From the NCBI RefSeq assembly GCF_003334335.1, contig NZ_QOWQ01000142.1: a stretch of 864 bases of DNA. One strand, given 5' to 3'. Of the stretch, positions 1 through 864 are shown piece by piece. The position numbers were made by a program, and so were the translations under genes. Under the pieces are notes generated by a model, which worked only from the letters and a program-made list of their open reading frames with translations, was not told the origin of the DNA and did not search any database. The stretch's first letter is position 1. Each line of letters begins with the position of its first letter. This DNA comes from Escherichia coli. Its GTDB lineage: Bacteria > Pseudomonadota > Gammaproteobacteria > Enterobacterales > Enterobacteriaceae.

Positions 1-204
1 GGGACAACGCCACGCTCCGTTAACGCGGTAAACCCCGGTGTGTATCGTTTTTGATTATCCCCGCACACTCGCGCAGAGGAGTCTCCCGGTAGGGCTGCGG
101 TCTCTGTTCATGTGGGAATACGGCGACGATACTGCGCAAAGACATGCTTCAGAAATACATAAGTAAACTAAAATATTGTATCTCTGTGGCTAATTACGTA
201 AATT

Positions 205-228
205 GGTGGCTTGGCCCCTTTAGCCACC
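205..228 (-). terminator. Candidate stem-loop, possibly an intrinsic terminator, about 35 nt downstream of the Rz stop
   Basis: GGTGGCT (205..211) and AGCCACC (222..228) form a perfect 7-bp GC-rich inverted repeat around a 10-nt loop. On the minus-strand transcript the stem is followed by AAUUUACGUAAUU, a weak and interrupted U-tract. On the plus strand no U-tract follows. Confidence 0.25.
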
Positions 229-262
229 GGCAAATCTTCAGCGGATTATCCTTGGCCGGTTT

Positions 263-736
263 TTATCTGAGGCATTGCTCACGAATGTATAGCTGTGCCC
301 CTTCCAGCTGCTTCTGCATTGTCATCAACCGTTCTCTGAGGATGAAATAATCCCGTTCAGCGGCGTCTGCCAGTCTGGGGCCGGTTGCATTATCCACGCC
401 GGAGGTGGTGGGGGCTTCACGCACGGAGCCTGGACAGGTGGCGTTGATCCGCAGGCGCTTACGACCAGCGGCAACGTCAGCGCGAAGAGTTTCATTTTCA
501 GCTCTCGCATCGGCTAATTCCCTCGAGTATTTTGCATCGAGCGCAGCAACATCGCGCTGGCGCACCTGCATATCAGTAATGGTTGCGTTCGCCAGCTTCA
601 GTTCACTGGCTTTGTTATCGCGCTGCGCTTTGTAGGTAATCGCGTTATCACGGTAATGGTCTGTTGCCATCCACAGCGCTCCACAGGCCACCAGCAGAAT
701 AACGATAAACGCGGAAAGCATTCGGTTTATGTTCAC
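263..736 (-). CDS. Rz: Rz-family i-spanin (inner-membrane spanin subunit, annotated in many genomes as phage endopeptidase Rz/RzpD-like)
   Basis: The 157-aa ORF starts at GTG 736..734 and ends at TAA 265..263. It has a short N-terminus with one Arg, then a hydrophobic transmembrane segment ([19 protein letters not shown]), then a charged, Ala/Arg/Glu-rich periplasmic domain. From memory it aligns closely with lambda/P22 Rz: motifs [75 protein letters not shown] and a C-terminal EQC are all shared. Two periplasmic Cys are present (INATC and EQCLR), matching the disulfide-forming Cys of lambda Rz. An alternative start is ATG 721..719, giving 152 aa; neither start has a strong Shine-Dalgarno. 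Confidence 0.9.
325..510 (-). CDS. Rz1: Rz1-family o-spanin (outer-membrane lipoprotein spanin subunit), embedded in the +1 frame of Rz
   Basis: The 61-aa ORF (ATG 510..508) lies wholly inside the Rz gene in the +1 frame. It has a lipoprotein signal peptide with a charged n-region (MRELKMK), a hydrophobic h-region ([10 protein letters not shown]) and a lipobox VSA|C (Cys20, codon 453..451). The mature 42-aa peptide is very proline-rich (11 Pro) and carries a second Cys (Cys30). From memory, the mature segment [29 protein letters not shown] is nearly identical to lambda Rz1. GAGGG lies 9 nt upstream of the ATG. An alternative start is ATG 495..493 (MKLFAL..., 56 aa). Confidence 0.85.
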
Positions 737-864
737 CCCAGCAGCCCCGACGAAGACAACATCATCCAGGCCATGGAAAGAAAAAGAGCAACCAGCATTA
801 GTGAAAATGAAATGCCGACAATTACACAGAGGATCTTCGCCAGCGTTATGAGTTTGTCTGACAT
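733..864 (-). CDS. Hypothetical small single-pass membrane peptide (43 aa) upstream of and overlapping the Rz start; function unknown
   Basis: The ORF runs from ATG 864..862 at the window edge to TGA 735..733 and encodes [43 protein letters not shown]. It has a short polar N-terminus, a hydrophobic stretch of about 28 residues consistent with one transmembrane helix, and a short Ser/Gly tail. Its stop overlaps the Rz GTG start in a GTGA arrangement, which suggests translational coupling. The ORF was too short for the supplied ORF track. Its ribosome-binding site lies outside the window, and the ATG could be internal to a longer ORF. Confidence 0.35.

Follow-up and report, generated by a model that had tools for sequence, protein, structure and literature searches.

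In phage T7, RNase III processing hairpins are located between genes in both the early and the late transcripts. HK022 carries the put RNAs, two-hairpin elements of ~70 nt that lie just downstream of PL and PR and modify RNA polymerase. Noncoding RNAs have also been described in lambdoid prophages: AgvB, AsxR, and the other EcOnc sRNAs of EHEC are 51-60 nt long, bound by Hfq, equipped with a terminator, and encoded 3' of PR' near stx (PMC4104026). Here, we analyzed an 864-bp stretch of Escherichia coli DNA (the window), the first 262 positions of which an earlier note, made from the letters alone, had singled out as lying downstream of the spanin gene Rz.

Sequence 100% identical to the window occurs in a prophage of E. 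coli JE86-ST05 and of other strains; the PhiR12 phages share 99% identity with the window. Its source is a lambdoid prophage whose late-gene strand corresponds to the minus strand of the window; on this strand the order is lysozyme, two small ORFs, Rz/Rz1, region 262..1, cos, Nu1, A, W, and portal. No cos site is present inside the region. The cosN cohesive-end sequence GGGCGGCGACCT was located at positions 4884-4895 of locus L001, an exact relative of the window, which places it 106-117 nt beyond window position 1, and the Nu1 start codon lies further on, at L001 4707; region 262..1 is therefore the noncoding stretch between the last lysis gene and cos. On the minus strand, window positions 1..262 form the noncoding terminal part of a lysis cassette that belongs to a lambda-like prophage.

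The exact-match records name the Rz gene "lysis protein" or "endopeptidase Rz." The embedded Rz1 gene is annotated neither in the RefSeq chromosome record nor in the PhiR12_1 phage record. The lysis cassette also has an unusual insertion in the lysozyme-Rz interval, namely the two small ORFs at window 733..864 and L001 5879..6061 (both on the minus strand), with a very hydrophobic 43-aa product (a "hypothetical protein" in RefSeq) and a 60-aa product.

Starting from the Rz stop codon, the region consists of a 72-bp allele-specific flank, a 52-bp AT-rich empty "moron" slot, and the first 140 nt of a longer module. We consider this descriptive part of our explanation, a noncoding lysis-cassette end composed of Rz flank, empty slot, and module start, very likely to be correct. 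The GC content is 53-62% across 1..140 and 30% at 141..200 in 60-nt windows, as the earlier note had observed in describing the left 140 bp as moderately GC-rich and the next 60 bp as AT-rich. Directly 3' of the Rz stop codon, the flank contains a hairpin, ACCGGC/GCCGGU. A second hairpin, GGUGGC/GCCACC at ~205..228, was rejected as a conserved feature, being lineage-specific and absent from relatives.

Among the loci collected, 139..190 matched exact relatives only (L001, L002, and L079); the spacers of relatives contain no ORF either, and blastn of 139..262 against the right end of lambda gave no match. Elsewhere, the slot between Rz and the module is occupied by bor on the opposite strand (lambda, ev087, and Stx2 II) or by a Rha-like gene (Lys8385Vzw). 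Many phages have an empty slot, and the arrangement seen most frequently has the module beginning ~20 nt past the stop codon of Rz. Because other phages hold differing content at this place, we interpret the AT-rich spacer as an empty variable slot and not as a decayed gene. The suggestion that the region is a prophage module junction is borne out, since it sits between the lysis cassette and cos/Nu1 with a slot for bor, a Rha-like gene, or nothing at 139..190; the comparison with the equivalent region of relatives, which the earlier note had recommended, revealed just this variation in slot content.

Window positions 1..140 belong to a noncoding module of ~183 nt (L001 5140..4958) that continues for 43 nt past the left edge of the window. 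Its terminal hairpin, H5, lies outside the window, and its 3' end is ~60 bp before cosN. The BLASTN search with 1..262 that had been proposed as a check returned about 400 of 50,697 phage records, nearly all of them covering the module part, 1..138 or 30..138, and only 6 records covered at least 80% of the region. We built a covariance model, R1, from a MAFFT alignment of 31 diverse copies. R1 scored 150.1 bits on window 1..140 (minus strand; a match to positions 1-141 of the 184 in the model, truncated 3') and 203.7 bits on the complete L001 copy, and it identified one copy per locus in 98 loci.

We gathered 208 loci from two IMG/VR pattern scans and other sequence records. In all 208, the module is on the late strand, past the lysis genes and before the packaging genes or intervening morons. 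Its nearest upstream neighbor is Rz at 0-50 bp (47 loci), Rz at a greater distance, Bor on the opposite strand (37 loci), or a Rha-like gene (30 loci), and the downstream neighbors are YbcV-type, TonB-like, Nu1/cos, the 933W small terminase, and others. The 5' junction is constant at TGCGCnGUAUCGUC (window 138..) against at least 8 unrelated left flanks. Likewise, the 3' junction is constant after GGUGGAAGAAACNGGA against at least 10 unrelated right flanks, which include the lambda-type cos, a second cos type, the 933W-type small terminase gene, and ybcV-type morons. The module is a discrete noncoding unit that in every locus shares the direction of the late operon and lies where the lysis genes give way to those for packaging.

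BLAST located the module at 11,016 places (median of 2 and maximum of 11 per genome) across 4142 of the 5426 complete E. coli genomes; 691 of these places are on plasmids. Lambda itself carries a copy between bor and lambdap78 (J02459 46,866-47,034; R1 score of 126.9 bits), as does the DLP12 prophage of K-12 between borD and ybcV (NC_000913.3 579,007-579,176; 132.7 bits), and neither record annotates a feature at this position. In Salmonella phages of the ES18/SPN3UB/S135 type, the module occupies the right genome end. When species-representative genomes were scanned with a strict pattern, it turned up in Escherichia only, plus evident contaminant contigs; the reach beyond Escherichia came only through BLAST to the Salmonella ES18-type phages.

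Exact copies also appeared on short contigs (L128, L133-L136, and L138) of Nanosynbacter, Pseudomonas, Thiomicrorhabdus, Collinsella, and Alkalicoccobacillus assemblies, and these are almost certainly the result of contamination or mis-binning. In the one iss plasmid examined, pEC2341_2, only the 5' domain is present (L140 2498..2603): homology stops right after the 3' arm of helix P1, and the copy lies ~170 bp upstream of iss, beside Rz/Rz1 pseudogene fragments. The pEC2341_2 copy is a phage relic travelling with iss. One IMG/VR contig, L223, contains two full-length copies 1.8 kb apart (2521..2703 and 4306..4487, minus strand; 201.8 and 201.5 bits), which may bracket an inserted moron. Two types of cos adjoin the module, the lambda type, GGGCGGCGACCT, and one reading ...ACACGGGGCGGGCGGCGCGG, and both are preceded by a common motif, TGATAACCATTATCATTTT..CGGGTCCT. 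The module is also found in pac-type phages (933W and ES18), whose terminase genes adjoin it, and in lambda it is 1.4 kb from cos.

Table 1. Features of the window, with predicted helices of the module given as RNA of the late (minus) strand
Feature	Coordinates	Strand	Basis or remark
First three quarters of the ~183-nt noncoding structured module	1..140	-	Covariance model R1
AT-rich lineage-specific spacer	139..190		GC 30%; slot of bor, Rha-like gene, or nothing elsewhere
3' flank of Rz allele, noncoding	191..262	-	Local BLAST and alignment; 79-89% to few lineages with a related Rz allele
Rz (i-spanin)	263..736	-	ORF list and exact-match records
Rz1 (o-spanin lipoprotein)	325..510	-	Embedded in Rz, +1 frame; 61 aa; lipobox LVVSAC
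P1 5' arm, GUAUCGU	126..132	-	Pairs with 42..48
P1 3' arm, ACGAUAC	42..48	-	Pairs with 126..132
P2 5' arm, UAUUCCCACAU	110..120	-	Pairs with 56..66
P2 3' arm, GUGCGGGGAUA	56..66	-	Inside the most conserved stretch
P2b, CGCAG/CUGCG	95..99 with 72..76	-	Encloses P3; 97.7% paired; one C-G to U-A double change
P3 hairpin, CCC/GGG	92..94 with 85..87	-	96.5% paired; loop differs in Salmonella copies
Hairpin H4	1..36	-	Outer GGGG 33..36/CCC 1..3 plus one base past the window; inner CCGCG 24..28/CGUGG 10..14
41-aa ORF	20..145	-	Spurious; TAA closes the frame in 93 of 95 distinct module copies
68-aa ORF, antisense to Rz	144..350	+	Very probably spurious

RNAalifold, applied to the late strand, yielded the helices P1 (GUAUCGU/ACGAURC) and P2, and inspection of variants yielded P2b/P3, the two-tier hairpin H4, and H5 (Table 1). 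Of the seven pairs of P1, 99.4% of cells are paired in 97 distinct copies, with U-A/U·G/C-G and C-G/U·G changes. P2 has compensatory double changes in four pairs, and in lambda a C-G pair is swapped to G-C. P2b/P3 is the weakest part of the structure model. The inner stem of H4 exists in at least 8 sequence-distinct compensated versions, including CCGCG/CGCGG, CUGUG/CGCAG, CACGUU/AACGUG, UCUCAU/AUGGGA, CCGCGC/GCGCGG, CGCG/CGCG, and CAGC/GCUG; E. coli phages alone account for at least 7, and double changes were found in 4 of its 5 pairs. H5 reads GUCCGG/CCGGAC, GUCCUG/CAGGAC, or GUCCGG/CUGGAU in E. coli phages. Outside the helices, the module contains near-invariant unpaired stretches, e.g. AAUCAAAAACGAU, and a conserved 17-nt purine-rich loop, UGCGAUGGUGGAAGAAA. 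The substitution-event profile falls to near zero in the most conserved stretch, GAGUGUGCGGGRAUAAUCAAAAACGAURCACACCGGG (window about 33..70).

The clearest compensatory evidence comes from the comparison of the E. coli and Salmonella versions of the module. In the Salmonella ES18/S135-type copies, which are 78% identical, P2 is altered from UAUUCCC/GGGAAUA to UAUCAUC/AAUGAUA by three double changes and one mismatch (Salmonella-type arms UAUCAUCGCAU / GUGCAAUGAUA), and H5 from GUCCGG/CCGGAC to UCUCGA/UCGAGA by four double changes. The inner stem of H4 in this clade is CAGC/GCUG, and P1, P2b, and P3 are retained.

Pairing extends to 96.3% of cells in the MAFFT alignment from which R1 was built. 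In the alignment of 97 distinct copies made with R1, a procedure that favors the structure, it reaches 97.1% of cells versus 94.7% in shuffles. Double changes affect 15 of 41 pairs compared with 5.8 ± 1.6 in shuffles (0 of 500 reach 15), a figure to be read with most copies being >80% identical and the strongest covariation coming from one divergent Salmonella clade and from recombinant variants. Slid controls gave 2-11 double-change pairs with 36-64% of cells paired. When E. coli and Salmonella copies were balanced, pairing was 95.6% versus 87.3% in the shuffled set, and the covariation score was 0.273 versus 0.133. The independent covariation events are few because the copies are closely related and recombine. 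Within these bounds, the alignments show that the predicted helices (P1, P2, P2b/P3, H4, and H5) are preserved by compensatory substitutions.

Two copies depart from the common architecture: in L202 (5531..5705, minus strand), a 9-nt deletion removes P3 and P2b is kept, and in Lys8385Vzw (L006 1273..1453, minus strand), an 11-nt tandem duplication (GTATCGTCGCC) affects the P1 5' arm. An alternative hairpin, GUGUGC/GCACAC followed by a U-run, was considered as a switch or terminator and discarded, as it is not kept in the window, lambda, or plasmid copies. A Chi-like octamer in the H5 loop (GAUGGUGG) was also set aside, not being conserved among variants.

The same pairs can be read on either strand, and 96.3% of cells pair on the late strand compared with 86.4% on the opposite strand; G·U cells number 125 and A·C cells 17. 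Late-strand C>T events exceed G>A events about 2:1 in 79 distinct copies (45 versus 23 in unpaired and 23 versus 12 in paired columns). Part of the G·U excess is therefore attributable to a general C>T bias, which is seen in unpaired columns too. We consequently do not take the excess of wobble pairs as proof of strand, its weight being reduced by this bias, and retain the cell-level comparison alone. On that footing, the G·U pairs, which can form on the late strand only and help to preserve the helices there, suggest that the RNA is copied from this strand, a preference that fits the invariant orientation of the module in the late operon.

No promoter or terminator owned by and conserved with the module was found. 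A scan for Rho-independent terminators over L001 4600-5900 returned 0 terminator-like sites; the inner stem of H4 is 4-6 bp long with a 7-11-nt loop and is followed by a partial U-run only. The region contains a single σ70-type promoter site (TTTACG-16-TACAAT, 202..175, minus strand), which is at chance level (2 found versus 1.6 expected) and has a -10 hexamer that is not conserved. With the Rfam 15 covariance models, nothing reached E ≤ 1 in the window, in the extended locus, or in five other contexts, lambda-, 933W-, and Salmonella-type ones among them, and full-text literature searches retrieved no description of the module. The earlier proposal of a small RNA site thus holds in part and in another form: 1..140 makes up the larger share of a conserved module whose fold is backed by covariation, but the region has no conserved promoter or terminator of its own. 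Of the case that the earlier note had named as refuting its reading, a conserved intergenic spacer with no transcript, the first half stands, as the region is both conserved and intergenic; its position in a Q-dependent late operon would imply transcription during lytic growth.

We propose that the module acts as RNA within the Q-dependent late transcript, and we regard a functional RNA structure on the late strand as probable. Its most likely role would be that of a cis-acting processing or stability signal of the late transcript, a specific assignment that we offer tentatively, as one possibility. In this model, the imperfect rod of ~26 bp formed by P1, P2, and P2b and the two hairpins that flank it would set the lysis message apart from the downstream packaging and head message, or would protect it, much as RNase III sites do between genes of phage T7; the likeness to RNase III sites concerns the architecture of this predicted rod only. 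We favor cis-acting processing or stability because the module has no promoter or terminator of its own and places a long imperfect rod and two hairpins at the border of two gene blocks. The role would be modest at best, considering that the lambda copy has diverged and the iss plasmid copy is truncated.

More broadly, we lean slightly towards the view that in E. coli, Shigella, and Salmonella the majority of lambdoid phages and prophages, lambda included, carry an unrecognized ~183-nt structured RNA at the lysis/packaging boundary of the late transcript, a distinct family with a role in late-mRNA processing or stability or in trans. The spacer after Rz is ordinary; the module is a credible new structured-RNA candidate. 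About three quarters of complete E. coli genomes, as well as lambda, the most studied phage, contain this sharply bounded unit, which has neither annotation nor an Rfam family. Should it prove to be a functional RNA, the late operon of lambda, a textbook system thought to be fully mapped, would gain a post-transcriptional control point, and prophage annotation would gain a compact marker of the lysis/packaging boundary.

The module could instead be a boundary sequence without a function of its own, maintained by homologous recombination among lambdoid phages, with incidental helices. Its conservation is no better than that of the neighboring Rz gene, and its identity among phages (80-94%) resembles that of Rz. 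Folding energies are no better than those of shuffles (z = +0.82 for the window copy; mean of -0.4 over 20 copies, range +0.8 to -1.5), and single-sequence MFE folds recover the consensus helices about half the time. Moreover, the module is itself a mosaic in which 5'-domain variants are combined with differing H4 variants, and iss plasmids keep a truncated copy where no late transcription is expected. However, neutral DNA would be cut at random by illegitimate joints, whereas both ends of the module keep their exact nucleotide position, with at least 8 different neighbors adjoining the one and at least 10 the other. The compensatory double changes in P2, H4, and H5, including three and four adjacent ones in the Salmonella clade, and the near-invariance of unpaired stretches such as AAUCAAAAACGAU also argue against this reading, and we consider a functionless linker unlikely.

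A further alternative is that excision from the late transcript frees the module to serve in trans, either as a small RNA or as a protein decoy, with targets in the host or the phage. This would suit a discrete, structured unit of ~183 nt with a purine-rich 17-nt loop (UGCGAUGGUGGAAGAAA) and invariant single-stranded stretches, and prophage morons are known to encode regulatory sRNAs (PMC4104026). Nevertheless, no conserved promoter lies upstream of the module, whose commonest arrangement leaves just ~20 nt to the Rz stop codon, and it has no Rho-independent terminator or U-tail. The Hfq-bound prophage sRNAs described in the main text of PMC4104026 are located 3' of PR', and EcOnc13, the one mapped here, lies between Q and the holin gene. 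We therefore doubt that the module acts in trans. For the same reason of location, an identification with the AgvB/AsxR/EcOnc sRNAs was rejected.

It is improbable that the module acts on the opposite strand, serving genes of the bor/iss type as their promoter or as a regulatory region upstream. It does lie 100-230 bp upstream of bor/iss in lambda, ev087-type phages, and iss plasmids, where it would be read on the bor-sense strand, and the HK629 record annotates a predicted promoter, TGGACA-15-TACAAT, inside a lambda-type copy. Yet most copies, that of the window included, have no adjacent bor, both hexamers are confined to the lambda-type variant (the consensus being CGGTCA / TACGGC), and the G·U pairs favor the late strand. 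The predicted σ70 promoter of HK629 is at L209 915..941 (minus strand, bor-sense), corresponding to about 46,880-46,906 in lambda. Its -10 hexamer was created by lambda-specific substitutions in the P1-P2 linker, and these changes may be an adaptation for bor expression.

The records of identical or 99%-identical DNA in RefSeq and GenBank annotate nothing from Rz to the small terminase subunit, with the exception of one 40-aa hypothetical ORF of PhiR12_1 outside the window. This agrees with the judgment of the earlier note that 1..262 has no convincing ORF and rules out a conventional flanking gene in a frame that it had missed. Both ORFs that it mentioned are in the ORF list, the Pro/Arg-rich one of 41 aa (MSLRSIVAVFPHEQRPQPYRETPLRECAGIIKNDTHRGLPR; 6 Arg and 5 Pro) on the minus strand and the one of 68 aa on the plus strand that runs antisense into Rz; two others had gone unmentioned, at 38..166 (plus strand, 42 aa, GTG start) and 168..233 (minus strand, 21 aa). 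The 41-aa frame is open in this lineage only, through a change of TAA to GAA. The first third of the 68-aa ORF lies within the lineage-specific spacer and the remainder is antisense to Rz; a relative, L015, has the same antisense frame with another N-terminus. Variable columns of the module distribute over the codon phases as 20/20/15, without 3-base periodicity, and several copies contain 1-nt indels. The plus-strand ORF 38..166 was dismissed as a small protein gene, finding no support in periodicity, indels, or frame conservation, and ORF C87 of Stx2 II as an annotation artifact over homologous DNA. The absence of a Bor-like C terminus, also remarked on before, was confirmed when lambda Bor served as a tblastn query for the window (the top hit had an E-value of 0.65 and spanned 13 residues). 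A decayed gene, as once suggested for this region, or an unrecognized small protein gene thus appears largely refuted and is hardly credible: short ORFs do occur on both strands, and a few phage records label homologous DNA "hypothetical protein" or "Rz-like spanin," but there is no similarity to Bor and no codon periodicity, 1-nt indels are present, the 41-aa frame is closed in nearly all copies (Table 1), C87 is not kept in frame, and related spacers are free of ORFs.

Compared with the RNase III hairpins of T7, the module is likewise predicted to form an imperfect long hairpin with internal loops between blocks of a polycistronic phage transcript. There is no sequence relationship between the two; the module has three domains, whereas the T7 element is a single hairpin, and cleavage of the module is only putative. 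The put RNAs of HK022 are likewise cis-acting structured elements in lambdoid operon transcripts, cis action being a proposal for the module, which has no promoter near it and is located where the lysis cassette ends. With AgvB, AsxR, and the EcOnc sRNAs, the module has in common that it would be a noncoding RNA at a conserved position in lambdoid prophages; it differs in its length of ~183 nt, its place after Rz, and the lack of a terminator and of an Rfam match.

The 139..190 slot recalls the moron insertion sites of lambdoid phages, as far as these are presented in PMC4104026, which cites Juhala et al. 2000, since it likewise holds bor or a Rha-like gene in relatives; in contrast to such sites, it is empty here, with no detectable moron remnant. 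The closest counterparts are the spacers of lambda and of K-12 DLP12, which contain homologous sequence that follows the lysis genes and is oriented just as the module of the window is. In lambda, bor precedes the module and ~1.4 kb (p78 and p79) separates it from cos, whereas the phage of the window has neither; the lambda copy itself has a replaced H4 region and a mismatch in P1.
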